Assembly: GCA_030608005.1 (NCBI GenBank)
Contig: JAUWIX010000001.1
Location: 14,375 to 78,374 of the forward strand
Direction: 5' to 3'
From: Dehalococcoidia bacterium
GTDB lineage: Bacteria > Chloroflexota > Dehalococcoidia > Dehalococcoidales > BS750m-G39
Length of the DNA: 64,000 nt
Position numbers and translations under genes: made by a program. Positions 611 through 59,780 of the stretch are shown here, piece by piece (positions within the stretch are counted from its first letter, which is position 1; each line of letters begins with the position of its first letter). Below the pieces are notes generated by a model. That model saw only the letters and a program-made list of their open reading frames with translations. It was not told the origin of the DNA and ran no database searches.

Positions 611-698
611 GGAGAGTCAAAGAGAGGCGAAACCTCTCTTACATAATCAATTCCCCTTCCCCTTATCAAGGGGAAGGGGATAAAGGGGATGGGGTTAC
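611..698 (+). repeat. composite intergenic repeat (hairpin A + spacer + hairpin B + G-rich tail), forward orientation
   Basis: Hairpin A is agagagg-cgaaa-cctctct (621-639). Hairpin B is ccccttcccc-ttatcaa-ggggaagggg (653-679). The tail is ataaaggggatggggttac. The same architecture recurs at 10 or more other loci. Confidence 0.85.
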
Positions 699-723
699 TA
701 ACTAAAACCCTAAAGGAGACTAA

Positions 724-915
724 ATGCCCTGGGGTAGACCACCCAAAATATTAACAAACGATATCTATTGCCCTTATTGTGCTAAAGAGGGCAAGAAGCA
801 AAAATTAGCTTGTGAAATCCATAGCTGGGCCTATCGGAAGTGGTGTAAGGGAAAGCAAGATGTCTCTGGCAGGTATGCAGTAAGAAGCTTCTTCGCAAAG
901 CCTAAGGAGAAGTAG
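724..915 (+). CDS. small basic Cys-rich hypothetical protein (possible zinc ribbon)
   Basis: 63-aa ORF with an AAGGAG Shine-Dalgarno 6 nt upstream of the ATG. It has CPYC...C...H/C spacing. I recognise no family. Confidence 0.45.
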   Translation: MPWGRPPKILTNDIYCPYCAKEGKKQKLACEIHSWAYRKWCKGKQDVSGRYAVRSFFAKPKEK

Positions 916-924
916 GGTTAGGAA

Positions 925-1845
925 ATGAATCGTCTAATGGCTATAGTTGGTCCTACCGGCGTGGGCAAGAGTAAGCTAGCTCTTCGCCTGGCTCAGGATT
1001 TTGATGGGGAGATAGTGAGCGCTGACAGCCGACAGGTCTATCGTTATATGGATATTGGCACCGCTAAACCCAGCCAGGAGGAGCTAGCCCTCGTCCCTCA
1101 TCACCTGATTGATATAGTCGCTCCTGATAAAGATTTTAGCCTGGCTCAATATCAACGGCTAGCCTACAGGGCTATTGAGGACATTCAACAGCGCCATAAG
1201 CTAGCCTTATTGGTGGGTGGCAGTGGACTGTATGTATGGTCGGTGTTGGAGGGCTGGGGGATACCGCAGGTGGCACCCGACACGGAATTCAGGCATAGTC
1301 TGGAGGAGAAGGCAGCCGAGGTGGGAAAGGATGAGCTTTATCAGGAGCTTGCCAGGGTTGACCCGGTTGCAGCGCGGAGGATTGACCCCCGCAATATGCG
1401 CCGCACGATAAGGGCTCTTGAGGTGTATAGAGGCGCAGAGGTTCCCTTTTCCCAGCTTCAGCGTAAAGAGGAGCCACCTTTCAATACCATGATAATAGGT
1501 TTAACCGCAGATAGGGCAGAACTATATCGTAGGATTGACTTGAGGGTTGATGAAATGATAAAGCGGGGTTTAGTTGACGAAGTTAAGAAGCTGGTGAACA
1601 GGGGCTATGATTTTAATCTGCCAGCTATGTCTGGCATAGGCTACAAGCAAATTGGCATGTTTCTTAGAGGCGAGCTAACCCTGGCTGCTGCCATACAGCA
1701 AATCAAGTTTGAAACCCACCGATTTATCAGGCACCAATATAGCTGGTTTCGGTTGAAAGATGATAGAATAAAGTGGTTTGATATACAGAGCAGGGTGGAT
1801 TCACAAATCATGGCGCCACTGACTAAGTTCATAGGTGGTGAGTAA
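925..1845 (+). CDS. miaA: tRNA dimethylallyltransferase
   Basis: P-loop GPTGVGKS is followed by SADSRQVYRYMDIGTAKP, typical of MiaA. Length is 306 aa. Confidence 0.93.
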   Translation: MNRLMAIVGPTGVGKSKLALRLAQDFDGEIVSADSRQVYRYMDIGTAKPSQEELALVPHHLIDIVAPDKDFSLAQYQRLAYRAIEDIQQRHKLALLVGGSGLYVWSVLEGWGIPQVAPDTEFRHSLEEKAAEVGKDELYQELARVDPVAARRIDPRNMRRTIRALEVYRGAEVPFSQLQRKEEPPFNTMIIGLTADRAELYRRIDLRVDEMIKRGLVDEVKKLVNRGYDFNLPAMSGIGYKQIGMFLRGELTLAAAIQQIKFETHRFIRHQYSWFRLKDDRIKWFDIQSRVDSQIMAPLTKFIGGE

Positions 1846-2065
1846 GTTAATGCGGTTGTTTAAATATTTTAAGAAGAAAAAGATTAGAGCAGAAGATATA
1901 TTTGATCCTAAAGCAAAGGGGAAACATCCCAGTAAACCTATTTATAGAGAGGTAGTCCTTAAACCCAGTGATAAAGAATGCCCAAAATGTCATTCTCATT
2001 TGATTAGACCTGCAGGATATGGAGATAGATTGGAATGCCAAAATTGCGGTCATATATTTTCATGA
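1835..2065 (+). CDS. small zinc-ribbon protein (hypothetical)
   Basis: CPKC-x17-CQNC zinc-ribbon spacing with a lysine-rich N-terminus. The GTG at 1835 overlaps the miaA end. The ATG at 1850 (MRLFKYF) is an equally plausible start. Confidence 0.5.
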   Translation: MVSKLMRLFKYFKKKKIRAEDIFDPKAKGKHPSKPIYREVVLKPSDKECPKCHSHLIRPAGYGDRLECQNCGHIFS

Positions 2066-2108
2066 TAAGAAAGATATTTAATTAGGCGAGTATTCTTGCA
2101 AGGAAGTT

Positions 2109-2224
2109 TTAGAGGGGTACAGTCCCGCTAAAGAAATTATCTTCCCCTTAACAAGGGGAAGGGGATAAAGCAGGTTCCCAGGAAAATCAAAGATTTTTCT
2201 GGGTGCATAAAGGGGATAGGGTTC
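2109..2224 (+). repeat. composite intergenic repeat, forward, with an extra inserted hairpin
   Basis: Hairpin B is cttcccc-ttaacaa-ggggaag (2141-2162). An extra inverted repeat cccaggaaaatc/gatttttctggg lies at 2177-2203. The tail ataaaggggatagggttc ends 3 nt before the dapF ATG. Confidence 0.75.
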
Positions 2225-4382: not shown

Positions 4383-5453
4383 GTGGAGGATTCGATAGAT
4401 GAGCTGGCTCAGTTAGCAGGCACGGCTGGGGCAGAGGTGGTTGGGAAACTCATACAGCGATTACCCAGAGCATCAAGAACACACTATTTGGGCAGAGGCA
4501 AACTGACAGAACTACTGTTGCTAAAGGATAGCACCAAGTATAATGTAGCGATTTTTGACGACGAGCTTTCGCCACTTCAGCAGCGAAATCTAGAGGAAGC
4601 CCTTCAGGTAAAGGTGATTGACCGGGTAGCCTTGATTTTGGATATTTTTACCAAGCGGGCTAGAACCCGTGAGGGTCAATTGCAGGTAGAGCTGGCTCAG
4701 CATCAATACCTTTTCCCTCGTCTTGCCGGACAGTGGAGTCATCTGGAAAGGCTTGGCGGTGGCATTGGCACCAGAGGTCCCGGTGAAACCCAGCTTGAGA
4801 CTGATAAGCGCCTTATTCGGCGCAGGATACATCGTCTGAAGGCACAGATTGACGACATAAGAAAGCATCGTCAGCTATATCGTCAACAGCGCAGGAAAAC
4901 CGGTATCCCTATAGTTGCCATTGTGGGTTATACTAATTCTGGCAAAAGCACCTTACTGAATGCTCTCAGTCATGCCGATGTCTTTGTCGAGGACAAGCTG
5001 TTTGCCACTTTGGACCCAATCACCAGGCGGTTAACCCTTCCTGATAGAAGTGCGGTCTTATTAACCGATACTGTTGGCTTTATCAGGAAGTTACCGCCCA
5101 CCATTGTAACTGCATTTAAAGCAACCCTTGAGGAGTTAGCCGAAGCCAGTGTGCTCCTCCATGTGGTTGACTTAACTTGTCATAACGCTGCAGAACAGTG
5201 CCAAATAGTAGAGGATATTCTTGCTGACCTCAACCTCATGGACAAGCCTCGGATTACGGCGCTAAATAAGATTGATTCGTTACTGGATGATAGCCAGAGT
5301 TGGAGTGAGGAGACAGCCCTAAATTATGTTTCTGACCAGAGTGAAGCAGTTGAAAAGAATACTGTACTAATTTCAGCCACCAAGAAGTGGGGACTAACTA
5401 AACTCCTGGAGCTAATCAGCCGGACGCTAAGCCCCACAATGCAGCCGGTCTAA
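4383..5453 (+). CDS. hflX: GTPase HflX (the real start is probably upstream of the first canonical start codon)
   Basis: HflX motifs are present: LILDIFTKRARTREGQLQVELAQ, GPGETQLE, and G1 GYTNSGKST followed by DTVGF. The conserved N-terminal domain continues in frame upstream to 4284. Confidence 0.9.
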   Translation: MEDSIDELAQLAGTAGAEVVGKLIQRLPRASRTHYLGRGKLTELLLLKDSTKYNVAIFDDELSPLQQRNLEEALQVKVIDRVALILDIFTKRARTREGQLQVELAQHQYLFPRLAGQWSHLERLGGGIGTRGPGETQLETDKRLIRRRIHRLKAQIDDIRKHRQLYRQQRRKTGIPIVAIVGYTNSGKSTLLNALSHADVFVEDKLFATLDPITRRLTLPDRSAVLLTDTVGFIRKLPPTIVTAFKATLEELAEASVLLHVVDLTCHNAAEQCQIVEDILADLNLMDKPRITALNKIDSLLDDSQSWSEETALNYVSDQSEAVEKNTVLISATKKWGLTKLLELISRTLSPTMQPV

Positions 5454-5573
5454 AGAGACGCTCTCAAATCAAAATCTAGGGGCATAAAAATTCTTCTGAA
5501 TGGTTCTATTACCTTTATAAGCGATAAGAGACAATTAGCCCCATATTTTTGCCCTTGGTTTTTTTATTTTTAA

Positions 5574-5662
5574 GGGAACCCACCCCCTTAATCCCCCTCC
5601 CTTGATAAGGGAGGGGGAGAGTTTTTTAAGAAGAGGGGGCTAGCGCCCCCTCTTAAACACCC
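5574..5662. repeat. intergenic repeat (reverse tail + hairpin B, followed by a palindromic hairpin A module)
   Basis: The reverse tail ggaacccacccccttaat is followed by ccccctccc-ttgataa-gggaggggg. After that comes aagaggggg-ctagc-gccccctctt plus aaacaccc. Confidence 0.8.
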
Positions 5663-5710
5663 GGTTGGCATAGGCAGGTTATAATTTAACATAACACTCT
5701 GTGATTTAAG

Positions 5711-6373
5711 TTGCTTCTTGTTTCTTGGAGCAAGCATAGATATAATGTTGCTATGATACTTGAATGGCTTACTAAGCATCGGCGCTGGGTTATAACAGGC
5801 TGCGTTATTATTCTTATTTTCACAATACTTGTCGAGGTCTTTAGGTCATATTTTTGGGCTAGCTCCATTCTTGACTACTTCCAGCATTGGTCGCTAGCTC
5901 TTAGTGCTGGGGCAACGCTTGCTCTCGCTTATATAGCCTATATTTCGATTTTAGAGAATCGTCGTATACGAGAAGAAGAGAGAGAAAGGGCTATCAAAAC
6001 AAGAGCATTAGCGATAGTCCGCAATTGGGTATTTGACTCGCTGGAATTAATCACACTAAATGCACAGTATACGGATGAGCATCGAAGAGAGGAATTTGAT
6101 TTCGGAAGGCATATTTTATATAAAATTCAGGACGCTAAAACGGAGCTATTAAGGAAAACGGAAGAGGTACTTCATTCAGCGACATTGTTTGGGCCCCAGT
6201 TCTTTTCTTTAGTTGATGAAGGCTTTAACACACTTAAAGGGTTCATCGAGCAAGGGATGGCTGAAAACCCCAATATAACTGAACAATACAAGAAGAGCTT
6301 TGGGTTGCTGTTCGCGAACATTCTTAAGGCGATCAGGGAAACTGAGGACAGCGAACTAAACCTTAGAACCTAA
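5711..6373 (+). CDS. hypothetical membrane-anchored protein in an AT-rich island
   Basis: 220-aa ORF with two hydrophobic N-terminal segments and then a charged helical region. I recognise no family. The start is uncertain (TTG 5711 or ATG 5753). Confidence 0.45.
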   Translation: MLLVSWSKHRYNVAMILEWLTKHRRWVITGCVIILIFTILVEVFRSYFWASSILDYFQHWSLALSAGATLALAYIAYISILENRRIREEERERAIKTRALAIVRNWVFDSLELITLNAQYTDEHRREEFDFGRHILYKIQDAKTELLRKTEEVLHSATLFGPQFFSLVDEGFNTLKGFIEQGMAENPNITEQYKKSFGLLFANILKAIRETEDSELNLRT

Positions 6374-21348: not shown

Positions 21349-22593
21349 TTATCCCTGTCCAGCCTTCTGCTCCTGTATAAGCTTCTCCCCATACTCAAGC
21401 AGAATTTTGGCTCGCTCTGGAGATACCTTCTTTGATTCCAGGTAGGCTTTTAGGGCATCAAGGGGGGCTATCTCTTCAGCGGTCCATTGCCCCAGCCTGA
21501 GGCGTGCCTCTCGCTTTATATCCTTGGCGATAGTGAAGTAATGAGCCTCTTTCACGGTATTCCTGATATCATTATCTCTGAGCTGACCTTCAATCTCAGC
21601 CGGCAGGCTAATGTTTAGTCGCACTATGGCATCCCTGACTTTGTCTTCCTGTTCAGCAATAGCCCTGAGCACTGTTGATGTTGGTTCAGCATCCTGTGGC
21701 TCAATATTGATATTAACGGTGAGAAAGCGGCGCCCGGTTACCTGGTGGAAGTCAAAGGAGACCCGCCTTTTGCCTGTTTCCTTATCGGACTCAATTTCTA
21801 CCAGATAAAAACCCTTGTCATCTTTCTCCTCGCTGAAATCCAGCCGCTCCAGGCTGCCGGGATAAACAACTGGGGGATTGTTGCTCAAAACCTGGTGTTT
21901 ATGAATATGACCTAGGGCAATGTAATCAAAGGCGGGGTGGGCAACATTGCTCAGCAACAACGCATGCTCCTGTCCTATGGTCATTGACCTCTCTGAGCCT
22001 ACCTTGGCGCCGGAGACCCAGACATGGGCAGCTAGTATGGCTGGCAGTCCAAGGTCAAGTTGTTGAGCTTTGGCAGCGATGATATCAGTTAATGCCTGCT
22101 GCAATCTCTGATTTATCTGGTCAAAGGTAAGGTTTTTAGTCTCTTCTCTGGTTAGCAGAGCACTGCGCCTGAGCCAGGGTAAGGAGACTATTTGAATAGT
22201 CCCGCTACTAGTCGAAATGCGGTGGACTTGGGGACGATTGGAGACATAGATATTTTTAACCGCTAGGGTATCAAAGATTTCAGTAGAAGTAGCCCTGCCG
22301 ATAGCATTAGGCAGGTCATGGTTGCCGATAAGAAGGAAGGTAGGGATGCTACTGATGGAAAGGCGATTAATCCTTTTGGCAAATTCCCGTTGTTGAGTCT
22401 GGCTTGGCTCGCGGCTCTTATAGGCATCACCGCAGAAGAGGACGAGATCTACCCTGTTCTCCACGGCATAATCTACCACCTGGTCAAGGGCTTTTAGAAA
22501 ATCAAGTAGCCGTGATGATAAGCCGGTAGCTGGGTCAAAGCGACCGTAGCTTTCAACGCCAAGGTGAAGGTCAGCAAAGTGGAGAATTTTCAT
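21349..22593 (-). CDS. sbcD: Mre11/SbcD-family nuclease
   Basis: Calcineurin-like phosphoesterase motifs: HFADLHLG, GDAY, GNHD, and GH.H (ALGHIHKH). Confidence 0.88.
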   Translation of the reverse strand: MKILHFADLHLGVESYGRFDPATGLSSRLLDFLKALDQVVDYAVENRVDLVLFCGDAYKSREPSQTQQREFAKRINRLSISSIPTFLLIGNHDLPNAIGRATSTEIFDTLAVKNIYVSNRPQVHRISTSSGTIQIVSLPWLRRSALLTREETKNLTFDQINQRLQQALTDIIAAKAQQLDLGLPAILAAHVWVSGAKVGSERSMTIGQEHALLLSNVAHPAFDYIALGHIHKHQVLSNNPPVVYPGSLERLDFSEEKDDKGFYLVEIESDKETGKRRVSFDFHQVTGRRFLTVNINIEPQDAEPTSTVLRAIAEQEDKVRDAIVRLNISLPAEIEGQLRDNDIRNTVKEAHYFTIAKDIKREARLRLGQWTAEEIAPLDALKAYLESKKVSPERAKILLEYGEKLIQEQKAGQG

Positions 22594-22595
22594 TA

Positions 22596-22686
22596 GGTAA
22601 CCCCATCCCCCTTTATCCCCCTTCCCCTTGATAAGGGGAAGGGGGATGGATATTAAAAAGAGGGGCTACACCCCCCTTAAACTCCC
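22596..22686 (-). repeat. composite intergenic repeat, reverse orientation; its tail abuts the sbcD start
   Basis: ggtaaccccatccccctttat is followed by cccccttcccc-ttgataa-ggggaaggggg. Next comes hairpin A (agagggg-ctaca-cccccct) and then taaactccc. Confidence 0.85.
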
Positions 22687-22694
22687 ACTGTCAG

Positions 22695-27011: not shown

Positions 27012-27130
27012 AGCTCCTAGGCAGCTAATTCTAGCACAGCCAGATTGGCAGAGTAAAGCTATTGTGCTTATTCAATACCTTAGTGACGCCTCAACTCTCT
27101 GCACTTCACCCCCCTTTAAGTTTTTGATTT

Positions 27131-34061: not shown

Positions 34062-34070
34062 ATCTGATAT

Positions 34071-34142
34071 AGCCAGCGGTCAGATTCGAACTGACGACCG
34101 GCGGTTTACGAAACCGCTGCTCTACCCCTGAGCTACACTGGC
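34071..34142 (-). tRNA. tRNA-Thr (anticodon CGT)
   Basis: Manual cloverleaf: acceptor GCCAGTG/CGCTGGC, D arm GCTC-AGGGGTA-GAGC, anticodon loop TTCGTAA, T arm GTCAG-TTCGAAT-CTGAC. No CCA is encoded. Confidence 0.9.
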
Positions 34143-34240
34143 TTTATCTAAGTATAGCACAAAATCGCTTGGCTAATAAAAACCTCATGTTTTATAATAG
34201 ATGACACTGATTAATTAATCCAGGACTATGGAGGTGAAAA

Positions 34241-34516
34241 ATGACTATCGGAGCATGTGGCATTGCCTGCGAAGTCTGCACTCTCTATGACCAGAAAAAG
34301 TGCCCTGGCTGTGTTCCCGGGACTGATGAGGAAGCCCCTGCCAGACTGAAAGCACTAACGGAAATGGGGTTTCCCTGCCCCGTTCTGAAGTGTGCTATCA
34401 ACAGCCAGGTAGCCTATTGCCTGAGCTGCGATAAATTCCCCTGTGACGTTCACTATCGGTGGAGCCCATATAATAAGGAACTGCTTGACATCTTTAAGAA
34501 GATGTTAAACAGGTGA
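34241..34516 (+). CDS. DUF3795-like Cys-rich protein
   Basis: 91 aa with ACGIACEVC....KCPGC... and later C..C..FPC, as in DUF3795. Confidence 0.6.
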   Translation: MTIGACGIACEVCTLYDQKKCPGCVPGTDEEAPARLKALTEMGFPCPVLKCAINSQVAYCLSCDKFPCDVHYRWSPYNKELLDIFKKMLNR

Positions 34517-34522
34517 ATTTGG

Positions 34523-34801
34523 TTATATCTTCCCCAGCAATATTTTAATGAAGGGGAATAGACCGAGAAAGAGAATAAAAAGGGCACAGCCAACCGCAAC
34601 CGCCACCAGGTTTATCCCAGCAACCTCAGGTCCAAACTGCCATAAAACACTATCTAACAGGCTGCCCAAAAAGCCACCCGCCCAGCCCAAGCCTATAGTC
34701 CTAAGCCGCCCGGTAGGCATAACTACAGGTACCAGCTTATTGCCAACAAGCCTGAGTATAATGGCAATTGCCAGCAAAATAAAAAATCCAGCTACACTCA
34801 C
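34523..34801 (-). CDS. GlsB/YeaQ/YmgE-family small membrane protein
   Basis: 92 aa with 3 TM segments and a G-rich helix (GWAGGFLGSLL). Confidence 0.6.
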   Translation of the reverse strand: MSVAGFFILLAIAIILRLVGNKLVPVVMPTGRLRTIGLGWAGGFLGSLLDSVLWQFGPEVAGINLVAVAVGCALFILFLGLFPFIKILLGKI

Positions 34802-34884
34802 TCTAGCCCCAAGCTAGTTTAACAACTCAGCACTCTATGTCAAATTGTTGACGCTCAGATAGGGTTATGGTAGTATAAGAAGCT

Positions 34885-35817
34885 ATGCAGATAGAGGAAG
34901 AGCTGGTCAAGCTTTCAGCCGAAAAAGATATGCTACTAACCATTGGTGTTTTTGACGGCGTTCACCTCGGTCATAGATACCTGATTTCCCAATTAAAGGA
35001 GCTTGCCAAGCAGCAGAATTTGGTTAGTGGAGTGGTAACCTTTCGCCAGCATCCCAAAGAGGTGTTGTCACCTCAAACTAAGTTGCCATTCTTGACTAAC
35101 CTTGCCCAAAGAACAGACCTTCTCAAGAGTGAAGGCGTTGATGCTGTTGTTGTCCTGTCCTTCACTCCTGAGTTAGCCCAGCTCAGCGCTCGGCAATTCC
35201 TTGGTCTACTAAAGAAATACCTCAGAATGCGCGGAGCAGTAATTGGGTCTGACTTCGCCTTAGGTCGAAACAGAGAAGGCGATACCAATACCCTGCGCCA
35301 ACTGGGGCAGGAAATGGACTTCAGTGTAACCATAGTGCCCCCGATAGTAATAGATGGTGAGGTGGTAAGTAGCACAGCTATCAGGAATGCTCTAGCTGAA
35401 GGAGATATGAAACGGGTGCAGAAACTGGTTGGGCGTTCCTTCAGCCTTTATGGACATGTAATCCCCGGGGCAGGGCGAGGCATGGAGTTAGGCTTCCCCA
35501 CCGCCAATCTGGACATAGACCCACAGCAAGCTCTCCCCGCCGAGGGCGTTTATGTCGGCTGGGTTCATATTGATGACCAAACCCATCCCTCAATGACTAA
35601 CATTGGCAAGCGCCCTACCTTCGGTGGCAGAGAGCGTGTAGTAGAGGTTTATCTCCCTGACTACCATGGCGATCTATATGGGCAGGAGCTAACAATTGAT
35701 ATTGTTGAGCGACTTCGTGGCGAGAAAAAATTTGACACCCCAGAAGAATTGAAGAAACAGATAACAGAGGACATAAAACAAGGAAGAGCCATATTAAAAA
35801 CCAAAGGTGGAAACTAG
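34885..35817 (+). CDS. ribF: bifunctional riboflavin kinase / FAD synthetase
   Basis: IGVFDGVHLGH, and the C-terminal GFPTANL...GVY... kinase motifs. Confidence 0.92.
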   Translation: MQIEEELVKLSAEKDMLLTIGVFDGVHLGHRYLISQLKELAKQQNLVSGVVTFRQHPKEVLSPQTKLPFLTNLAQRTDLLKSEGVDAVVVLSFTPELAQLSARQFLGLLKKYLRMRGAVIGSDFALGRNREGDTNTLRQLGQEMDFSVTIVPPIVIDGEVVSSTAIRNALAEGDMKRVQKLVGRSFSLYGHVIPGAGRGMELGFPTANLDIDPQQALPAEGVYVGWVHIDDQTHPSMTNIGKRPTFGGRERVVEVYLPDYHGDLYGQELTIDIVERLRGEKKFDTPEELKKQITEDIKQGRAILKTKGGN

Positions 35818-44504: not shown

Positions 44505-44541
44505 ATGTTATTAATTTACCTCACCTGCTTTAGGTTTTATC

Positions 44542-44790
44542 AGGTAACCCCATCCCCCTTTATCCCCCTTCCCCTTGATAAGGGGAAGGGGGAAATTCTT
44601 GTAAGAGGGACTTCGTCCCTCTAGAACTCCCCATAATATTTGAGGCTTCGCCTCTCTTGGACTCTTTTTTTCTTCTCCTTAAAAGGAGAGGGGGGAAGAG
44701 ATTTTAGAGAGGGACAAAGCCCCTCTCTTACCTGCACTCCCCCTTCCCTTTAAGAAATAATAAGGGAAGGGGGCCAGGGGGATAGGTTTC
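44542..44790. repeat. cluster of repeat modules; its first ~124 nt are a copy of the 27131-27256 composite
   Basis: Reverse tail plus B (ccccttcccc-ttgataa-ggggaagggg) comes first. A modules follow (agaggga-cttc-gtccctct; gaggcttcgcctctc; agagaggg-acaaa-gcccctctct). A forward B (ccccttccc...gggaagggg) and the tail ccagggggataggtttc end the cluster. Confidence 0.85.
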
Positions 44791-44862
44791 TAAACAATCT
44801 CTAACTAGCTCATGAGCTATTGCTAGAGTTAAGGCTCAGGTGATATAATTCGGTATACTTAT

Positions 44863-49601: not shown

Positions 49602-49631
49602 AAGACAATATTTTTAACAGCGAGGTGGATG

Positions 49632-50807
49632 ATGAAGCTAGTAGTAATAGGTTTTGGTCAGTGTGGGTGCAACATTGCTGATGAATTTTATGCCATTAAC
49701 AACCATGCTAAATCAATTTTTAATCGTAAGATTGAGATCTTAACCGATGCTTTTGCCATTAACACCGATGAGGCGGACTTAGGTGGTTTTAGGCATATTC
49801 CTAAGGATAGACACCATAGGATTGTGATTGGCGGTGTGAGAACCTTCGGGCATGGAGTTGGCAAAATGAATGTCGATGGTGCCAAGATTATTAAAGAAAG
49901 TTACACGGTTATCACTGATAATATTTTGGAGTCAAGAAAATTTCATGAGACCGATGGAGTTCTAGCCATAGCCAGTGGAAGCGGGGGCACCGGGTCTGGA
50001 GCAATTGGTTGGGCAATAAAGAAACTTAAGGAGAGGATAGAGAAACCAGTTTACGCCGCAGTAGTTCTCCCCTTTGGATATGAAGAAAACGGGGTTACTT
50101 CCTATGCAATAACCAACACTGCCACCTGTCTCAAGACAGTAAACCAATATGCTGATGCTGTGTTCTTGCTTGATAATGAACGGTTTGCCAGAAGGGGCTA
50201 CAGCTTCGCCCGAAATCTGCACCAAATAAATCTCGAATTCGTCAACAATTTCTATGACCTTTTCTGCGCCGGGGAGGAGAGAAGACCGCAATACCTAGGA
50301 AGCAAAGTGATAGATGCAGGAGATATTAAACAGACACTTGAAGGCATTTCCTCCATTGGCAGGGGGCAGATTGACCTTGCCACCTTTTATCGCTGGAGTA
50401 AGGAGCATTTTCGGGAAGAAGCAAGGGAAAGTAGCGCAGTAGCTGGAGCCTTAGATAAAGCCATGAATAACCTGTCTGTGTCAATTGACTTAAAGGATGC
50501 CAGGAAGATTCTGGTTCTACTCACTGCTCAGAAAGGGGTTATTACCCTGAATGCCTTGGAAGAGGTCGCTACTCTGTTACAAGAGAGGGCTCCTAGAGCT
50601 GTAATAAGAATGGGTGATTATCCTAGAAGGGGAAAGGAGATCTCTCTAACTTTAGTTGCTTCCAGCTTAGCCAAAGTGGTCAGGGTAGAGAATCTATATC
50701 TTCAAGCTAAAGATTTATTTAAACAGCAGGCGAAGCTAAATAGAGAAACCCAAGAGCAAATTCAACAGTTGCATCAGACTGGCAAGGAGCTTCCCAGCTT
50801 GGATTAA
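49632..50807 (+). CDS. tubulin/FtsZ-superfamily GTPase, CetZ/tubulin-like, paralog 1
   Basis: T1 GFGQCG, GHGVG, T4 SGGTGSG, LPFGYEE, LLDNERF, T7-like VIDAGDIKQTL, and RMGDYPRRG. The helical tail ends in KELPSLD. I chose the ATG at 49632 by alignment with paralog 2 (GAGGTG-N4-ATGAAG). The ORF track starts at 49629. Confidence 0.85.
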   Translation: MKLVVIGFGQCGCNIADEFYAINNHAKSIFNRKIEILTDAFAINTDEADLGGFRHIPKDRHHRIVIGGVRTFGHGVGKMNVDGAKIIKESYTVITDNILESRKFHETDGVLAIASGSGGTGSGAIGWAIKKLKERIEKPVYAAVVLPFGYEENGVTSYAITNTATCLKTVNQYADAVFLLDNERFARRGYSFARNLHQINLEFVNNFYDLFCAGEERRPQYLGSKVIDAGDIKQTLEGISSIGRGQIDLATFYRWSKEHFREEARESSAVAGALDKAMNNLSVSIDLKDARKILVLLTAQKGVITLNALEEVATLLQERAPRAVIRMGDYPRRGKEISLTLVASSLAKVVRVENLYLQAKDLFKQQAKLNRETQEQIQQLHQTGKELPSLD

Positions 50808-50873: not shown

Positions 50874-52049
50874 ATGAAGTTAGTGGTTGTGGGTCTTGGA
50901 CAATGCGGCGACAGGATTGCTGATGAGTTTGCCCGACTAAATAGAAGGGCACGTAGTCAGCGCGGGGTTGAGATAATTACCGGTGCCTTCGCTGTAAACA
51001 CTGATGCCGCTGACTTAAGTGGGCTACAAACTATAAAAGCTGATTACCAGCATAGAATCCTCATCGGAACTCGAAGGACCGGGGGCCATGGTGTAGGTAA
51101 AATAAATGAGCTGGGGGCTGAAATAGCCAAAGAGGACAGCGATAAGATTATAGATGCCATAAGAACAGCCCAGCGCTTCTTTGAGACCGATGCCTTCTTA
51201 TTGGTCGCCGGTGCTGCCGGCGGCACTGGCTCAGGGGGAATACCGATAGTTGCCCAGATGATAAGGGAGCGCTATGTGTCTAAGCCAATCTATGCCCTGA
51301 CTATTCTCCCCTTCGCTCATGAAGAGGAAACTGAGGAAAGAACTGTTTATAATTCAGCCACTTGCCTTAAGTCCCTCTATCCAGAGGTCGATGCCGTCTT
51401 TCTGGCTGACAATCAAAGGTATATCGGCAAGGACTTCTCGCTTACAAATAACCTATCTAAGATCAATACCTTAATAGTTGACTCATTCTACAACTTGCTC
51501 TGCGCTGGTGAAGAGACAAAACGCAAGCATATTGGGGCAAGGACGGTTGATGCCGGAGACATAATACAGACTTTGGTAGGCTGGACAGTAATAGGCTATG
51601 GCAAATCACCATTGCCTATCTTCAGGTGGTTTCCCTTCTTCGGAAGAAACTTCATAAAGAAGAGTATTGAAACTCACCGAGGAATCCGGGCCATGGATGA
51701 AGCCATAAGTGAGCTGTCAGCTAAATGCATTCCTTCGGATTCAGGTAGAGCCCTATACCTCGTCTCGGCACCACCTAGAGACATGAATATGGACCTGGTT
51801 AAGGACCTGGGAAATTATCTGAAAGATATAGCTCCAGAGGCAGTGATAAGGAACGGCGATTATCCCAGGCAAAAGAGCTTGATTGATGTAACCCTAATTC
51901 TGTCTGAGCTTAATATTGTGGATAAGGTAAAGGGGTACTATAACAAGGCAAGCGGCGTTGTTCACGAGCTTAAAGGAAGGCGAGACGAGTTCGAGCGCAA
52001 ACTTAGAGAAATAGAGGAGGCATCAAAGGACCTACCCTCATTAATATAA
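50874..52049 (+). CDS. tubulin/FtsZ-superfamily GTPase, CetZ/tubulin-like, paralog 2
   Basis: T1 GLGQCG, GHGVG, T4 AGGTGSG, LPFAHEE, LADNQRY, T7-like TVDAGDIIQTL, and RNGDYPRQK. The helical tail ends in KDLPSLI. Confidence 0.85.
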   Translation: MKLVVVGLGQCGDRIADEFARLNRRARSQRGVEIITGAFAVNTDAADLSGLQTIKADYQHRILIGTRRTGGHGVGKINELGAEIAKEDSDKIIDAIRTAQRFFETDAFLLVAGAAGGTGSGGIPIVAQMIRERYVSKPIYALTILPFAHEEETEERTVYNSATCLKSLYPEVDAVFLADNQRYIGKDFSLTNNLSKINTLIVDSFYNLLCAGEETKRKHIGARTVDAGDIIQTLVGWTVIGYGKSPLPIFRWFPFFGRNFIKKSIETHRGIRAMDEAISELSAKCIPSDSGRALYLVSAPPRDMNMDLVKDLGNYLKDIAPEAVIRNGDYPRQKSLIDVTLILSELNIVDKVKGYYNKASGVVHELKGRRDEFERKLREIEEASKDLPSLI

Positions 52050-54094: not shown

Positions 54095-54116
54095 TATACC
54101 GAGACTGCTTATTTCA

Positions 54117-54203
54117 GGTAGCTTGAAGGGGCAAAGCCCCTTCGAAACCTATTCCTTCTTCCTCTCCTTTGAAGAGAGGAGGATAAAGGGGGTGAGGTTG
54201 AAC
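54117..54203 (+). repeat. composite intergenic repeat, forward, GGTAG-TTGAAGGGG subfamily
   Basis: Hairpin A is gaagggg-caaa-gccccttc. Hairpin B is cctctcc-tttgaag-agaggagg. The tail is ataaagggggtgaggttgaac. The ORF-track recR start at 54123 lies inside this repeat. Confidence 0.85.
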
Positions 54204-54212
54204 CAGAGTCTC

Positions 54213-55162: not shown

Positions 55163-55165
55163 ATA

Positions 55166-55221
55166 AAAGTAGTTGAAATGTCCAAGCCCTGAAACTACCA
55201 GACTTAGACCGTAATAAAAAG
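55166..55221 (+). pseudogene. orphan, decayed copy (A) of the recO 5' end
   Basis: aaAGTAGttgaaATGTCCAAGCCCTGAAACTACCAGACTTAGACC aligns with aaAGTAGcaaaaATGTCTAAGCCCCGGAATTATCAGACTGAAGCA at 56689. It contains two in-frame stops. Confidence 0.8.
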
Positions 55222-55308
55222 GGTAGATTGAAGGGGCTTCGCCCCTTCAAAACCCATACTCCCCCCTCTCCTTTCAAGGAGGGGAGGATAAAGGGGGAGA
55301 GGTTCAAC
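55222..55308 (+). repeat. composite intergenic repeat, forward, GGTAGATTGAAGGGG subfamily
   Basis: Hairpin A is gaagggg-cttc-gccccttc. Hairpin B is cccctctcc-tttcaa-ggaggggagg. The tail is ataaagggggagaggttcaac. It is about 90% identical to the copy at 55948-56034. Confidence 0.88.
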
Positions 55309-55326
55309 TTTAAGCGGAGAATAATA

Positions 55327-55881
55327 GTGATATTAGAGTATAAGGAAGATATAAGCTCAGATTTTGAAGGAACGATTATTGATATCGAGACTGTTGGGGA
55401 ATTTAACGGGCAGTACCGAGGCACCCATGATTCGAGGGAATATCAGTATATGCAGCAGGTCATCTTTGGATTTATTAATCGGCAAGGTCTTCACATATCA
55501 TGTGCAAAGGGTATGGAAGCGATTGCTGAACTAAACGAAAAAGCAGAAAAGCTCATAGATCTATTACAAAGACCTTTCTATGCGTTCCAAAGTGAGTTTG
55601 AAAGAGGTGTTTTGTTTCACCAGCTTGGTAAAAGGATTGATTTCGATGGCGAACTACAATGTTATAGAGGAGAATCAAAAGGAAAGGCGAGAACTGAATT
55701 AGATATCCCTAATTATGGTGATCCTTTTAATGATGTGGGTAAACTATGCATGCAAGCTTGGTTAAGGGGAGAATTTGATAAAGCAATAGCACATAACAGA
55801 GCTTGCCTCTTAAAAGAAAGGGATATTTTGATAAAAAGAGGATTTAGAAAACCAAAGGACTTAAAATTTGTTCCAGAATAG
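55327..55881 (+). CDS. RNase H-like / DEDD-type exonuclease-fold protein (cassette 1 cargo)
   Basis: About 184 aa from GTG 55327 (GGAGA Shine-Dalgarno 6 nt upstream). GTIIDIETVG, FYAFQSEFERGVL and AIAHNRACLLKE resemble the three exo motifs of YprB/RNase_H_2-type proteins. The ORF-track start at 55228 lies in the repeat. Confidence 0.5.
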   Translation: MILEYKEDISSDFEGTIIDIETVGEFNGQYRGTHDSREYQYMQQVIFGFINRQGLHISCAKGMEAIAELNEKAEKLIDLLQRPFYAFQSEFERGVLFHQLGKRIDFDGELQCYRGESKGKARTELDIPNYGDPFNDVGKLCMQAWLRGEFDKAIAHNRACLLKERDILIKRGFRKPKDLKFVPE

Positions 55882-55947
55882 TAGTAAAAATGTCCAAACC
55901 AAGAAATTACCAAACAGAAGCTATCATTAAAAGGTTGTTTATCAAAA
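55878..55947 (+). pseudogene. orphan copy (B) of the recO 5' end; encodes the identical first 13 residues
   Basis: ATGTCCAAACCAAGAAATTACCAAACAGAAGCTATCATT encodes MSKPRNYQTEAII, the same peptide as recO codons 1-13. Nine codons differ, all synonymously. The reading frame then runs into the repeat and stops at 55950-55952. Confidence 0.85.
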
Positions 55948-56034
55948 GGTAGATTGAAGGGGCTTCGCCCCTTCAAAACCTATACTTTCCCCTCTCCTTT
56001 CAAGGAGAGGGGAATAAAGGGGGAGAGGTTCAAT
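55948..56034 (+). repeat. composite intergenic repeat, forward, GGTAGATTGAAGGGG subfamily
   Basis: Hairpin A is gaagggg-cttc-gccccttc. Hairpin B is cccctctcc-tttcaa-ggagagggg. The tail is aataaagggggagaggttcaat. Confidence 0.88.
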
Positions 56035-56119
56035 TCAAGCAAGGTAAACTCGGATTAGGCGAATAGTGAGTTCGTCTATGTGGCTGTTAGGCGAAATCCC
56101 ATAATAGGAGGAAACTACC

Positions 56120-56651
56120 GTGGATAAACCAACGTCCAATTTTCATTTCAAGTTCATGTCTTTTGGTTACAAATTTCGCGATTTTTTCTTGCCCCGCAAG
56201 AATATCTTGAAAGAGGTGGGGGTAAAACCAGGGTTTCATGTACTTGATTATGGCTGTGGTCCCGGGGGTTATATAATCGCTGCTGCCGAATTTGTGGGCA
56301 AATCAGGGAAGATTTACGCTCTGGATATCCATCCACTGGCAATTCAGATGGTTCAGAGTATCGCTTCAAAAAAAGCAACTGACGAATGTGGAAACCATTT
56401 GTTCCGATTGCAAAACTGGATTACCAGATAATAGCATAGATGTAGTTCTCTTATACGATACTCTTCACACGTTGAGTGACCCAAATGGAGTATTAGAAAA
56501 GTTACACCGAGTATTAAAACCAAATGGAATTCTATCCTTCAGTGACCATCATATGAAAGAAAATGAAATATTGTCTAAGGTAACAAACAGAGGATTGTTT
56601 AGGCTATCGAGAAAAGGCAAGATAACATACAGTTTCTTGAAAGAGGAGTAG
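56120..56651 (+). pseudogene. class I SAM-dependent methyltransferase, frameshifted in an A7 tract (cassette 2 cargo)
   Basis: Motif I VLDYGCGPGGY lies in the first frame (56120-56431). The post-I motifs (SIDVVLLYDTLH, LKPNGIL) lie in the +1 frame (to 56651). Removing one A from the A7 run at 56368-56374 gives a continuous ~176-aa protein (...IASKKQLTNVE...). Confidence 0.75.
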
Positions 56652-56700
56652 TAATGGACGACTTCGCAAAGCCCAGCAATATTAAACGAAAGTAGCAAAA

Positions 56701-57495
56701 ATGTCTAAGCCCCGGAATTATCAGACTGAAGCAATTATTATTAAGAAGATTAAGCTGGGGGAGGCGGATAGAATCCTTACCCTCTACACTCCACACCTGG
56801 GCAAGATTCAGGCAGTAGCCAAAGGGGTCAGGCGCCCCAGAAGTAAGCTCGCTGGACACCTTGAGCTGCTCACCCATAGCCTGGTGTCACTAGCTCGTGG
56901 TCGAAATATTGATACCATAATCGGGAGCCAAACCATCAATAGCTTTCTGCCGCTGAAGAGCGACCTGCAGCTTTCTTCCTATGCCCTTTATGCCACCGAG
57001 CTAGTTAATCAATTTACCGCCGAGAATATTGAAAACTATCCCCTGTTTGAGTTACTGCTTGAGACCATGCATCGCTTATGCCAGGGTGACGATAATGAGC
57101 TGGTCCTGCGCTATTTTGAACTGCACCTGCTAGATAAGGTTGGCTACCGCCCCCAGCTTCAGCAGTGTGTCTCCTGTCGCTTACCGCTAAAAGCCACCAC
57201 CAACTCATTCTGCCCCAGCGCTGGTGGCATGCTGTGCCCCATTTGCAGTCAAAGCCAACCTTTGACCTATCCCCTTTCGGTAAATGCACAAAAAGTGCTA
57301 CAACTATTACAGAACAGCGACTATAACACTGTCAGCAGACTAAAAATAAACCCGGAACTATCTCATCAGCTAGAGATGGTGATGAGGAATTACCTTAGAT
57401 ACCTCTTGGAAAGAGAGATAAAATCAACAGCTTGGCTGGATACCCTAAGAGAACAAACAAGGCGAGCGGCATTTAGCCAAATCGCTCTACTATAG
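56701..57495 (+). CDS. recO: DNA repair protein RecO
   Basis: 264 aa. The N-terminal OB fold (EAIIIKKIKLGEADRILTLYT...GKI.AVAKGVRR..SK) and the Zn motif C..C......F....GG..C..C are present. Confidence 0.9.
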   Translation: MSKPRNYQTEAIIIKKIKLGEADRILTLYTPHLGKIQAVAKGVRRPRSKLAGHLELLTHSLVSLARGRNIDTIIGSQTINSFLPLKSDLQLSSYALYATELVNQFTAENIENYPLFELLLETMHRLCQGDDNELVLRYFELHLLDKVGYRPQLQQCVSCRLPLKATTNSFCPSAGGMLCPICSQSQPLTYPLSVNAQKVLQLLQNSDYNTVSRLKINPELSHQLEMVMRNYLRYLLEREIKSTAWLDTLREQTRRAAFSQIALL

Positions 57496-57574
57496 AATAA
57501 AGATGAAATACAGATGATATGCGGCTGGGGGTTTGGAACTCTCAGCCTTTTTGCTATATACTAAGTAAAATAAG

Positions 57575-59083
57575 ATGACATCCAGATTAGACCGTATAGC
57601 TCAACAGCGCCGGCAAAAGCTTGACCGAATTCGCGGTCGTGGCATTGACCCCTACCCCTATGGCTATCACCGTAGCCACACCACTCAACAAGCAGTCGAA
57701 AAACTTAAAAAGTGGGAATCAAAAGATGCTACTGAAAAAGCTGCTGACCGTCTTGCCGGTAAACTCCAGGTTAATGTTGCCGGACGGATTATGGCGATAA
57801 GGCGAATGGGCAAGAGCGCATTCTTTGACCTGCGTGACGGCTCAGGGAGGATTCAGCTATTATTCCAGGACATAAACCAGTTTGATGAAAAAGACCTTGA
57901 GCTGTTTAAGGATTTAGATATTGGTGACATTATCGGGGTCAGTGGCCCTCTACTTTGGACAAAAAGTGGTGAACCTACCGTTTGGGTAGCAGAATTTACC
58001 TTGTTGGCTAAGTCGCTCCAGCCATTACCTGAAAAGTGGCACGGGCTTAGCGATGTGGACAAGCGATATCGCCAACGCTACCTAGACCTCATTGCCAATG
58101 CTGAAGCCAAGGAAATTTTCCGGGTGCGCAGCCAAGTTATTGCTGCCATCCGTGAGTTCCTCAACCAGCGAGGATTCTTAGAAGTAGAAACGCCGGTGCT
58201 ACAGCCCTTAGCCGGGGGTGCCTTAGCCCGCCCCTTTACCACCCACCACCATGCCCTTGACCAGGACTTCTATCTGCGCATTGCCCTTGAGCTTCATCTC
58301 AAGCGACTGATTATAGGCGGCTTTGACAAGGTATACGAGCTGGGTCGCATTTTCCGCAACGAGGGTATCTCCACCAAGCACAACCCCGAGTTCACCATGC
58401 TGGAAAGTTATGAAGCCTATGTCGACTATCAAGATGTGATGAAAATGCTTGAGAGAATGGTATCCCTTATTGCTCGCAAAATCATGGGTAGATATGAGAT
58501 TGAATTCGGTGATAACAACCTTAACTTCAAACCACCATGGCAGCGCTTAGAATTGCGCCAGGCAATCATCAAATACAGTGGCATTGATTTTGAGCAGTAT
58601 CCTGATGCCGATTCGCTCAGGGCGGAAATGCTAAAGCTAAAAATGGAGGTTGACCCTCAAAAGGACAGGGGCAGACTTATAGATGAGCTTATCTCAACCT
58701 TTGTCGAGCCAAATATGATACAACCCACCTTCCTTCTAGACTACCCGGTGGAGATGTCACCCCTAGCCAAGACCAAACCTGGTAACCAGCGCATGGTAGA
58801 GCGCTTTGAAGCCTTTGCCGGGGGAATGGAGATTGCCAACGCCTTCACTGAACTCAACGACCCTATAGAGCAGAGAGAGCGCTTTCTGCAACAACAAAAG
58901 GAGCGTAAGCCAGAAGATGAGACAACGGAGACCATTGACCAAGATTTTCTGCTGGCGCTGGAGTATGGTATGCCCCCTACCGGAGGGCTGGGCGTTGGCA
59001 TCGACCGCCTGGTGATGCTGCTCACCGGTCAGCAATCAATCCGTCAGGTTATTTTGTTTCCCCAGCTCAGGGAAAAGCCATAG
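57575..59083 (+). CDS. lysS: lysine-tRNA ligase (class II)
   Basis: 502 aa. An OB anticodon-binding domain is present, with class II motifs YLRIA.EL.LKR, FRNEG and GGLGVGIDRLVM. Confidence 0.94.
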   Translation: MTSRLDRIAQQRRQKLDRIRGRGIDPYPYGYHRSHTTQQAVEKLKKWESKDATEKAADRLAGKLQVNVAGRIMAIRRMGKSAFFDLRDGSGRIQLLFQDINQFDEKDLELFKDLDIGDIIGVSGPLLWTKSGEPTVWVAEFTLLAKSLQPLPEKWHGLSDVDKRYRQRYLDLIANAEAKEIFRVRSQVIAAIREFLNQRGFLEVETPVLQPLAGGALARPFTTHHHALDQDFYLRIALELHLKRLIIGGFDKVYELGRIFRNEGISTKHNPEFTMLESYEAYVDYQDVMKMLERMVSLIARKIMGRYEIEFGDNNLNFKPPWQRLELRQAIIKYSGIDFEQYPDADSLRAEMLKLKMEVDPQKDRGRLIDELISTFVEPNMIQPTFLLDYPVEMSPLAKTKPGNQRMVERFEAFAGGMEIANAFTELNDPIEQRERFLQQQKERKPEDETTETIDQDFLLALEYGMPPTGGLGVGIDRLVMLLTGQQSIRQVILFPQLREKP

Positions 59084-59092
59084 AGAGGGAAA

Positions 59093-59677
59093 ATGTCGCT
59101 GGTACCAGCCTTTGAAATAGGTGTGTGGAACGCTTGGATTTTCACGAGCAGCTTTCTGCTGCAAATGCTGACGGTTCTACTCCTGGGCAAGAGGGTGTGG
59201 GCCAGAAGCTCACTTCCCTCTGATATCAAGCGAAGCAAGCTGGAAAAGAGTGCGCCCCTGATAGGCAACTCAGTCTGGCTTCTGGCTATAATCTACTCTA
59301 TTTTTCTGCCTCTTCAACTGGGGACACTCTGGTTCTATCCTGGACTGGTCATCTTTCTCATAGGGTTAGGTGTCTTAATCACGGCCACAATTAACTTCAC
59401 CGCCGCACCATTTGATAAGCCGATTACCCATGGGATATATCATTACTCCAGACATCCCATGTATCTCGCTACTTTTTTAATATTCCTGGGTACCAGTATC
59501 GCTACTGCTTCCTGGGTGTTTTTCCTCCTGGGTATAGCCAATATTTTCTGGATGCGAACGGAGTTGCTCGTTGAGGAAAGATATTGCCTTAAGAGATATA
59601 GTGATACCTACAGCGAATATATGAATGGAACTCCAAGATGGATAGGAATACCGAAATCGGTGGAAAGTGATAAATAA
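59093..59677 (+). CDS. isoprenylcysteine carboxyl / phospholipid methyltransferase-family membrane protein
   Basis: 194 aa polytopic protein. HGIYHYSRHPMYLA and EE..L...Y...Y..Y motifs are typical of the ICMT/PEMT family. Confidence 0.7.
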   Translation: MSLVPAFEIGVWNAWIFTSSFLLQMLTVLLLGKRVWARSSLPSDIKRSKLEKSAPLIGNSVWLLAIIYSIFLPLQLGTLWFYPGLVIFLIGLGVLITATINFTAAPFDKPITHGIYHYSRHPMYLATFLIFLGTSIATASWVFFLLGIANIFWMRTELLVEERYCLKRYSDTYSEYMNGTPRWIGIPKSVESDK

Positions 59678-59693
59678 GATAAAGAAAAACTAT

Positions 59694-59780
59694 AAGGAGA
59701 GTCAAAGAGAAGCGAAGCCTCTCTTATAAAACCCATTCCCCTCCCTTATAAGGGAGGGGAATAAAGGGGGAGGGTTGGTA
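59694..59780 (+). repeat. composite intergenic repeat, forward; its tail ends 7 nt before the serS ATG
   Basis: aggagagtcaaagagaagcgaagcctctctt is followed by ataaaacccatt. Hairpin B is cccctccc-ttataa-gggagggg. The tail is aataaagggggagggttggtaa. The 5' part is nearly identical to 611-640. Confidence 0.88.

Follow-up and report, generated by a model that had tools for sequence, protein, structure and literature searches.

A two-hairpin repeat between the genes of the window

We analysed a 64,000-nt stretch of the chromosome of a Dehalococcoidia bacterium (contig JAUWIX010000001.1), referred to as the window, whose intergenic regions carry many copies of a repeat built of two hairpins and a purine tail. 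The window represents an ordinary piece of chromosome bearing tpiA, miaA, dapF, hflX, CODH/ACS and folate genes, a class II aminoacyl-tRNA synthetase gene, the ThiD2/TMP-synthase gene (thiamine), rnhB, mnmA, tmk, pdxS/T, ribF, tyrS, serA, ligA, pth, eno, gap, dnaX, ybaB, recR, recO, lysS and serS. The repeat is found at about 15 copies per 64 kb and makes up ~2% of the window.

As a starting point, we took the 11 loci listed for this repeat in an initial annotation. The covariance model R1, made from 11 window units, was used to search the whole window with the filters off. The search revealed 14 full units, with E values of 1e-8 to 2e-26, plus a single partial unit, all confined to the 11 listed intergenic loci, with no match elsewhere in the window. 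The search and the reading of the loci showed that all 11 indeed hold the repeat at the coordinates given, and each unit sits between open reading frames (ORFs) with Pfam support. The tail motif was observed 12 times in the window vs. 1.7 expected, and a longer tail pattern was found 8 times vs. 0 in 100 shuffles.

According to the flank profiles, the unit is ~105 nt long, its borders lying ~11 nt 5′ of stem A and 9–13 nt 3′ of the GGTT. When read with the purine tail at the 3′ side, it comprises a conserved head (AAGGGGAGT), hairpin A (for instance, AAGAGGGGC GAA GCCCCTCTT), the A-rich spacer TTATAAAACCATT joining hairpins A and B, hairpin B (for instance, CCCCTTCCCCTT ATC AAGGGGAAGGGG, with a loop of the TTATCAA/TTGATAA type), the linker ATAAA, the tail GGGGRTRGGGTT (tail type ATAAAGGGG...) and an A-rich end. 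The hairpins, spacer and tail initially described are all there. RNA folds of single copies consist of two hairpins (−36 to −50 kcal/mol, z −3.1 to −4.6).

The canonical copy is the full unit at 608–703 on the plus strand, which lies in the sense orientation between tpiA and the 63-aa ORF/miaA (covariance-model score 96.9 bits, E 2e-26; fold −38.1 kcal/mol, z −3.3). In its minimum-free-energy fold, hairpin A (AAGAGAGG CGAAA CCTCTCTT) occupies 620–640 and hairpin B occupies 652–680, with the pyrimidine arm at 652–664, the loop at 665–667 and the purine arm at 668–680. The linker TAAA and the purine tail GGGGATGGGGTT follow at 681–696; the tail mirrors the purine arm with which it covaries, looks like a Shine-Dalgarno (SD) sequence and is a putative reverse-Hoogsteen third strand. 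Directly downstream, at 697–723, stands a further conserved module, ACCTAATAAAAAYCTAAAGGGGGTGAGGTWGATAAACAATCTC, which often follows the unit on its 3′ side, as at 27090–27126 and 44505–44538 (both on the minus strand) and in many loci of other genomes; it looks like a solo GTGAGG-type tail with its end. In the 697–723 copy, AAAGGAGA forms the SD sequence of the 63-aa ORF at 724–915.

Units lie in both orientations, and R1 also recovered the head-to-head dimers of the initial annotation, which share hairpin A, at 27784–27936 and 44539–44796. A full minus-strand unit at 5569–5666 (74.3 bits) is antisense to the plus-strand hflX and a 206-aa ORF. Upstream of the ThiD2/TMP-synthase gene, a full sense unit at 27127–27221 (minus strand, 89.7 bits) is accompanied in the composite locus 27131–27333 by a degenerate unit of the opposite orientation at 27261–27356 (plus strand, 52.1 bits). 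The first dimer consists of a full unit upstream of the UPF0102 gene (ATG 27767) at 27784–27880 (minus strand, 83.5 bits; 98% inverted match to 645–700) and of a unit at 27836–27936 (plus strand, 46 bits) having hairpin A in common with it and a tail variant without ATAAA. In the composite locus 44542–44790, the outer member at 44539–44635 (minus strand, 83.9 bits) is full and antisense to pth and the SLOG gene; the locus also holds a partial unit at 44665–44727 (minus strand, model positions 13–76, 32 bits) and a full sense unit at 44695–44796 (plus strand, 72.7 bits) directed toward the SLOG-family gene (ATG 44863).

Covariation of the hairpins and the purine tail

To see the repeat outside the window, one genome per species was scanned with the tail pattern, which gave at least 115 loci; among the matches listed, nearly all belong to Dehalococcoidales/Dehalococcoidia metagenome-assembled genomes (MAGs). 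Over 668 kb of sequence from the first 100 loci, R1 produced 213 matches (E < 1e-4), and further matches were found in the remainder. The loci (denoted by L and a number) were thus chosen for carrying the tail pattern, and the gene calls in them are crude ORF calls.

Pair statistics were obtained with the 150 best copies, which come from dozens of Dehalococcoidales MAGs. The results clearly showed that 97.0% of the cells are paired, compared to 87.7% in shuffles and 53–78% in slid controls. Changes on both sides were found in 18 of the 19 pairs, i.e., in all nine pairs of hairpin A and in nine of the ten pairs of hairpin B (helix 2, where 97.7% of cells are paired), and the number of such cells reached 323 vs. 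71 in shuffles. The proposal that the stems change in a compensatory manner, with structure being conserved, is therefore borne out by 150 further copies. As all the changes in the hairpins are transitions, each arm stays all-purine or all-pyrimidine. Among the pairs, G-U exceeds A-C (67 vs. 37), a weak sign that the tail-bearing strand may be the one that folds. The hairpin A loop is most often GCGAAGC. In 67 of the 150 copies, the tail-bearing strand reads GCGNAGC or GCGNNAGC at the centre of hairpin A, the complementary form being present in 22. Pairing between the head and the spacer, predicted in the folds of some copies, was discarded as it had no covariation support.

The purine tail had initially been regarded as a module of its own. 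This view could not be kept: the tail is the mirror image of the 3′ (purine) arm of hairpin B and covaries with it. In the mirror register, mutual information between arm and tail is at the level of the Watson-Crick pairs, the top column pairs being 145–164 (0.68), 141–169 (0.62) and 139–171 (0.43), with 150–157 also among the top ones; a G in one strand accompanies a G in the other, and an A accompanies A or T. This rule is followed by at least six asymmetric haplotypes, for example, GGAGAGGGGG|GGGGGTGAGG vs. the opposite GGGGAGAGGG|GGGTGAGGGG, and the few exceptions are single, recombinant-like copies. For the 65 unique haplotypes, the mirror score was 8.52 out of 10 vs. 7.83 ± 0.09 with permuted tails (z 7.4), and 43 of them scored at least 9. 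The canonical triads C:G*G, T:A*A and T:A*T account for 87.9% over 11 positions vs. 31–63% off register. The direct register scored 7.06, i.e., below the mirror register, and hence both an alternative hairpin of the pyrimidine arm with the tail and a direct-repeat origin of the tail were rejected.

The domain order in the 150-copy consensus is CCCCYTCCCCTT / AAGGGGRGGGGG / ATAAA / GGGGRTRGGG, that is, pyrimidine strand, purine strand, linker and third strand. The stems measure 10–13; the first loop has 3–5 nt after terminal T:A pairs, and the second loop, T(N)AA, can be delimited to 3–5 nt because columns 150 and 157 covary. This agrees with the PIT/TM (ITxF) definition in domain order, in Watson-Crick pairing of the first two domains, in the mirror character of the third, which gives C:G*G, T:A*A or T:A*T triads with about one mismatch at most, and in dimensions (stem 6–15, loops 1–6 nt). 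Given that mirror symmetry and covariation link the tail to the purine arm, hairpin B and the tail together qualify, by their sequence, as a class II potential intrastrand triplex.

The triad rule is also kept, with other sequences, in a distant, related family of larger Dehalococcoidia genomes (L019, 6266–6379 and 7201–7312; L024, 3449–5359; L028, 4808–4950). There, hairpin A is perfectly palindromic, has 17–19 bp and differs in sequence from copy to copy; it is followed by a terminator-like U-rich run, GTTYTT, after which a triplex module of the same type (B plus tail), GGGAGAGGGGG|GGGGGTGAGGG, is located. Scattered copies obeying the rule were found in Scytonema, Calditrichia, Anaerolineae and a proteobacterial MAG. 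Strong units also occur in L006, L014 and L029 from an assembly titled “uncultured delta proteobacterium” (CAVTZP01). The genes of these contigs are 72–74% identical to those of a Dehalococcoidales MAG and syntenic with them, so that the taxonomic title is probably wrong and the units in these contigs provide no evidence for transfer between phyla.

Several observations concern inserts and replacements in the unit. Copies in L058, L069, L120, L024 and L028 bear inserts in the loop of hairpin B. The same genomes harbour another interspersed palindromic repeat, of the GAGATTGCTTCG...CGCAATGAC type (L027, L047, L055, L101), which in L101 takes the place of hairpin B.

Gene starts, orthologous sites and phage copies

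Singletons located between co-directional ORFs are mostly in the sense orientation (43 sense vs. 11 antisense, or 80% sense; p 1.4e-5), and the same is seen in tight gaps (27 vs. 6). Divergent contexts outnumber convergent ones (39 vs. 14), and in ~73% of units the tail faces a gene start. The tail AAAGGGGGUGA is complementary to the 3′ end of 16S rRNA, with 11 bases able to pair; this end is universal. In the window, three starts directly follow a tail and have no other SD sequence: dapF (ATG 2228), the metallophosphoesterase gene (ATG 22593) and serS (ATG 59788). The unit preceding the metallophosphoesterase gene lies at 22592–22690 (minus strand, sense, 87.1 bits), its tail ending 5 nt 5′ of the ATG, and the same gene has a unit in L016. 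The serS unit, between a PEMT-family gene and serS, occupies 59693–59784 (plus strand, 76.8 bits). In other species, a TTG start may lie inside GGGTTG. Some genes have no SD sequence ahead of their start codon other than the tail or the terminal module. A start within 35 nt of the tail was found in only about one third of the units, and many units lie upstream of promoter-like TTGACA boxes.

The dapF unit, at 2098–2224 (plus strand; 34.5 bits for 2098–2184 and 14.9 bits for 2187–2230), has its linker split. The locus given initially as 2109–2224 does hold the repeat, in the form of a single unit in which a foreign 36-nt hairpin, CAGGTTCCCAGGAAAATCAAAGATTTTTCTGGGTGC, inserted at 2171–2206, separates the purine arm from the tail, with ATAAAG duplicated on its two sides. 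A nearly identical 36-nt insert is found at the same linker position in L018 (minus strand, near 5400–5450). The insert thus looks like another small element, with the triplex linker as its target.

Gain and loss of units were followed at serS by searching 80 metagenomic serS loci with R1 and reading them. In the window, L124 and L120, a unit occupies exactly the space that separates serS from its upstream neighbour; in L121, this unit is truncated. It is absent in L119, L122, L133 and L139 (76–83% SerRS identity), where the junction is short and has a plain SD sequence, and none of the loci with a SerRS identity of 71% or less has a unit. The subtype of the serS-site unit varies with the species, which suggests repeated insertion or replacement. 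Units are thus gained and lost at orthologous sites. Between the window and two other assemblies of the same population (99.98–99.99% identical over the shared 5–12 kb), the units were identical and no polymorphism was found. Most of the further empty/filled pairs sought from syntenic ORFs were too diverged to place the insertion point. The idea that the head AAGGRGA represents the pre-existing SD sequence of the target was set aside, as it rests on the serS cases only.

A subfamily with the head GGTAG is found at the rec genes, where the repeat also misleads ORF calling, as had been pointed out initially. The unit between ybaB and recR (54112–54206, plus strand, 72.9 bits) contains a spurious TTG start at 54123; homology of RecR fits the ATG at 54213, the Pfam domain beginning at residue 9 from this start. 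Two more such units lie at 55217–55311 (plus strand, 87.2 bits), with a spurious TTG at 55228, and at 55943–56037 (plus strand, 92.7 bits). Short antisense ORFs (562–669, 2137–2442 and 5588–5779) run through other units. At recO, the 5′ end of the gene is found in triplicate, at 55165–55222, 55877–55934 and 56688–56745, the repeated stretch reaching from 13 nt upstream of the gene to codon 15 or so. The first two copies are truncated, each being followed directly by a GGTAG-headed unit and then by an unrelated ORF (55228–55881, with no Pfam hit, and the methyltransferase fragment 56120–56431, respectively). The arrangement resembles a cassette and suggests that insertion or duplication has occurred more than once at the start of recO.

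Besides being common in Dehalococcoidales, the repeat is carried by one of the phages of these bacteria. Viral contigs of IMG/VR also match the tail pattern, and at least 12 of them carry strong R1 units. One contig, L213 (UViG 3300033149_005654), encodes a portal and a major head protein and bears 5–6 units, all sense, lying between small genes downstream of the head module (L213, 1–2400). Two of its genes start 5–6 nt after a terminal motif of the GGTGAGGT type, one gene having GGTGAGGT itself and the other GTGTGCT. Units are also present on the related phage-like contigs L211, L212, L214 and L202. In total, 17 viral-contig units are sense and 0 antisense, several of the contigs being from one phage family.

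Other regulatory roles for the unit were considered and rejected. No sigma-70 consensus was found within the units (11 promoter-like sites in the region vs. 8.8 expected), and the TTGATA of the terminal module had no consistent −10 partner. An intrinsic terminator does not fit, since the sense hairpins are followed by A-rich rather than U-rich sequence, and only a few antisense copies are terminator-like. Distances to the upstream stop or to the stop of a converging gene were broadly distributed and hence not fixed.

Two features of the window stand apart from the repeat. Tandem paralogous genes at 49629–50807 and 50874–52049 encode tubulin-family proteins with the CetZ C-terminal domain (Pfam Tubulin and CetZ_C), and promoter-like regions upstream of both are duplicated (TTGACATT...TAAAAT at 49572 and 50813). 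CetZ proteins are mainly archaeal and are unusual in a Dehalococcoidia genome. Gene orientation switches from minus to plus at ~34000–34900, next to tRNA-Thr; the cumulative GC skew nears its minimum just past this switch and is lowest near 41–42 kb. The switch could mark a replication origin or only a transcription-driven change of skew.

Interpretation and comparison with known repeats

Taken together, the data give good support to the structural identity of the element as a REP-like hairpin combined with a class II triplex module in an interspersed, non-autonomous and polymorphic family. Triplex formation, and the molecule on which it would take place, we infer from the sequence. In our opinion, the element is probably a lineage-specific, non-autonomous interspersed repeat of Dehalococcoidales, in which hairpin A and the triplex module act as folding single-stranded DNA. 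The purine-tail strand would be the coding strand and, for genes co-oriented with replication, also the lagging-strand template. Once single-stranded, the coding strand may fold into hairpin A together with a triplex of C:G*G / T:A*A(T) triads, and a trans-acting enzyme, or the replication/repair machinery, may recognise this fold and spread or maintain the element. Copies would persist best where they are harmless, i.e., in intergenic sites and in the sense orientation, where the G-rich tail may replace or add a ribosome-binding site. Single-stranded DNA is suggested as the folding molecule because the triad code and the published exclusion of RNA point to it; a role at the RNA level is suggested because units are mostly sense and their tail is used as a ribosome-binding site. 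These two readings are compatible and do not exclude each other.

A number of points weigh against the folding single-stranded DNA. The sense bias, the proximity to start codons and the G-U excess suit a role in RNA equally well or better. The commonest haplotype has a systematic non-canonical triad, C:G*A, at alignment column 168, and the triad covariation rests on ~10 haplotype blocks; part of this signal reflects shared descent since the three strands lie within 45 nt. The orientation statistics come from crude ORF calls on 8-kb fragments and do not separate the direction of transcription from that of replication. No mobilising enzyme was found in the window or the unit-bearing loci searched. 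For the BoxC/PIT/TMECO element, the triplex was not detected by in vivo footprinting in E. coli, and earlier tests of PIT revealed no promoter, terminator or other activity (PMC4666352).

Alternatively, the repeat could act in cis at the RNA level, in 5′UTRs and between cistrons: its hairpins would protect or punctuate the mRNA, its free tail and terminal module would make a strong, portable ribosome-binding site, and the whole would be kept as an expression cassette. The 80% sense orientation and the one-sided distribution on phage-like contigs argue for it, as do the 11-base pairing of the tail with 16S rRNA, the G-U excess, the presence of several units within a compact phage late-gene module, and the starts at SD spacing with no other SD sequence (three in the window and two in phage genes). 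Nevertheless, only a minority of the tails stand close to a start, and many units are antisense, convergent or upstream of TTGACA-type promoters. An invariant G is found where the canonical SD sequence has A, contrary to what selection for an SD sequence predicts, and Rfam gave no match. The mirror covariation of the tail has no known explanation in RNA, which reportedly does not support triplexes of the purine motif (PMC4666352, citing Semerad & Maher 1994). We consider such an RNA element rather unlikely. Four G-tracts of the purine arm and tail might instead form a G-quadruplex competing with hairpin B, in a hairpin/quadruplex switch on DNA or RNA, and haplotypes like GGGGAAGGGG ATAAA GGGGATGGGG do offer four G-tracts of sufficient length (four G or more) joined by short loops. 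However, a quadruplex needs neither mirrored run lengths nor the correspondence of A to A or T, and TMECO was found by NMR to be a triplex rather than a quadruplex (PMC4666352). In the abundant GGAGAGGGGG|GGGGGTGAGG type, the outer tracts have only two G, and being too short in this main haplotype, they led us to set the quadruplex aside as very improbable.

The remaining alternative is a REP/REPIN family moved by a RAYT (an IS200/IS605-type Y1 transposase) encoded elsewhere in each genome. It would account for the G+C-rich hairpins with compensatory changes, the head-to-head dimers, the patchiness at orthologous sites and the persistence across many species, and the GGTAG head stands directly 5′ of hairpin A in the 54112, 55217 and 55943 units. 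On the other hand, a TAG-type head (GTAG tag) is present in only ~18 of 150 copies (~12%), the consensus being GGGG(A/T)GT, with GGG(A/T)GT in the majority. The unit is 2–3 times the length of a REP and includes the triplex module, and it prefers the upstream side of genes, while REPs are mainly downstream (PMC3733652). A tblastn search with E. coli RayT found nothing in the window or in ~0.8–0.85 Mb of unit-bearing loci, the only match being on an unrelated contig without units. Likewise, Pfam revealed no transposase among the ~50 window ORFs of at least 100 aa that were scanned (seven had no Pfam hit), so the initial statement that the window lacks a RAYT or transposase stands. We find this explanation improbable.

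A bolder idea may also be considered, which we regard as possible but doubtful: the coordinated changes in three strands would mean that the intrastrand DNA triplex itself is selected in living cells, and that a triplex-bearing mobile cassette lands by ribosome-binding sites and supplies them, in host and phage alike. If true, a natural DNA triplex would for the first time be backed by evolutionary evidence, in the form of covariation. The BoxC/PIT/TMECO kind of intrastrand triplex repeat has been known for 25 years; its copies in E. coli hardly differ from one another, and for this reason evidence for the relevance of the triplex in vivo is, to our knowledge, still lacking. The abundant and diversified Dehalococcoidales haplotypes represent a natural mutagenesis series, and as all three strands change together across them, selection on the third strand becomes directly testable. 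In practical terms, start codons and ORFs of Dehalococcoidia MAGs are miscalled because of the family, its copies indicate where gain, loss and rearrangement have taken place, and it may provide ribosome-binding sites of essential genes such as serS.

The arrangement of the modules had initially been called typical of REP/BIME- or MITE-like elements. That the repeat forms a modular interspersed intergenic family was upheld, but it is neither a classical REP nor a classical MITE. Like REP/BIME/REPIN elements, it has short G+C-rich palindromes with compensatory changes, occurs as singletons, head-to-head dimers and clusters, has persisted long in its clade and has a GTAG-like tag in one subfamily; it differs in that the tag is mostly not GTAG, that it lies mainly upstream of genes with no RAYT found, and that a longer, asymmetric unit carries a purine tail which is not palindromic. 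The low share of GTAG tags, the upstream preference and the blank RAYT search led us to reject the classical REP. The classical MITE was rejected because no complementarity exists between the two ends of a single unit (AAGGGGAGT ... GGTTnnnAAA), inverted ends being found in head-to-head dimers only, and no terminal inverted repeats or target-site duplications are present; head and tail do not make up such a duplication, since a mutual-information scan found no covariation between them. An Rfam search at the gathering threshold returned only three tRNAs and no match to the repeat, and the best result of an E-value search was a 25-bit miRNA hairpin vs. a cut-off of 86. The ~100-nt non-autonomous interspersed repeats Correia/NEMIS of Neisseria, ERIC, BOX and RUP resemble our family in their insertion polymorphism, in co-transcription with neighbours and in their ability to provide promoter, processing or ribosome-binding signals, but differ from the single units described here, which have no terminal inverted repeats or target-site duplications. 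We know of no parent insertion sequence for the Dehalococcoidales repeat. Where the tip of hairpin A carries GCGNAGC or GCGNNAGC, it has the motif of an extraordinarily stable DNA mini-hairpin (PMC13037366), here set on a longer stem of 8–10 bp.

The closest resemblance is to BoxC/PIT/TMECO. Hoyne and Maher (2000, 2002) reportedly described PIT elements in E. coli and other Proteobacteria. Holder et al. 2015 found by CD and NMR that the BoxC/PIT/TMECO DNA triplex is stable in vitro, and described the element as always intergenic, without strand bias, present in inverted dimers, commoner upstream of ORFs, and varying among strains in connection with local genome variability (PMC4666352). We reconstructed TMECO as CCCTCGCCCC TTT GGGGAGAGGG TTA GGGTGAGGGG, which is present in all 5426 of 5426 E. 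coli genomes, at a median of 19 places. The TMECO pattern CCCTCNCCC N3-6 GGGNGAGGG N3 GGGNGAGGG had 0 matches in the window and one in 1.2 Mb of loci (L041), and with relaxed loops it had five in the loci and 0 in the window. Judging by these sequences, the window family is of the same kind as BoxC/PIT/TMECO but belongs to a different sequence family. Thus, the architecture of the repeat had already been described, which partly corresponds to what the initial annotation named as a refutation (a match to a described REP/MITE or ncRNA family with a known function), although BoxC/PIT/TMECO is not known to have one.

Just as in TMECO, a C-rich arm, a short loop, a G-rich arm, another short loop and a mirror G-rich strand (class II, C:G*G with T:A*A/T:A*T) follow each other in the Dehalococcoidales units, with stems of 9–12 and loops of 3–6; one Dehalococcoidales haplotype, GGGGAGAGGG|GGGTGAGGGG, even has the TMECO stems. 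Both are strictly intergenic, form inverted dimers, are commoner upstream of ORFs, differ in copy number or presence among relatives and have no associated transposase. In contrast to TMECO, the second loop of the window family is ATAAA rather than TTA or CCG, and the unit adds hairpin A, a conserved head and an A-rich end, which the E. coli flgF-flgG copy lacks. The Dehalococcoidales haplotypes are many and diversified, whereas the E. coli copies are nearly identical; the sense bias is strong here and absent in E. coli; the density is ~15 per 64 kb vs. ~19 per E. coli genome; and the Dehalococcoidales family is also found in a phage. In other words, the features that are new here are the fusion with hairpin A, the diversified triad-obeying haplotypes, the sense bias, the gain and loss at orthologous sites, the copies within a phage structural module and the use as a ribosome-binding site.

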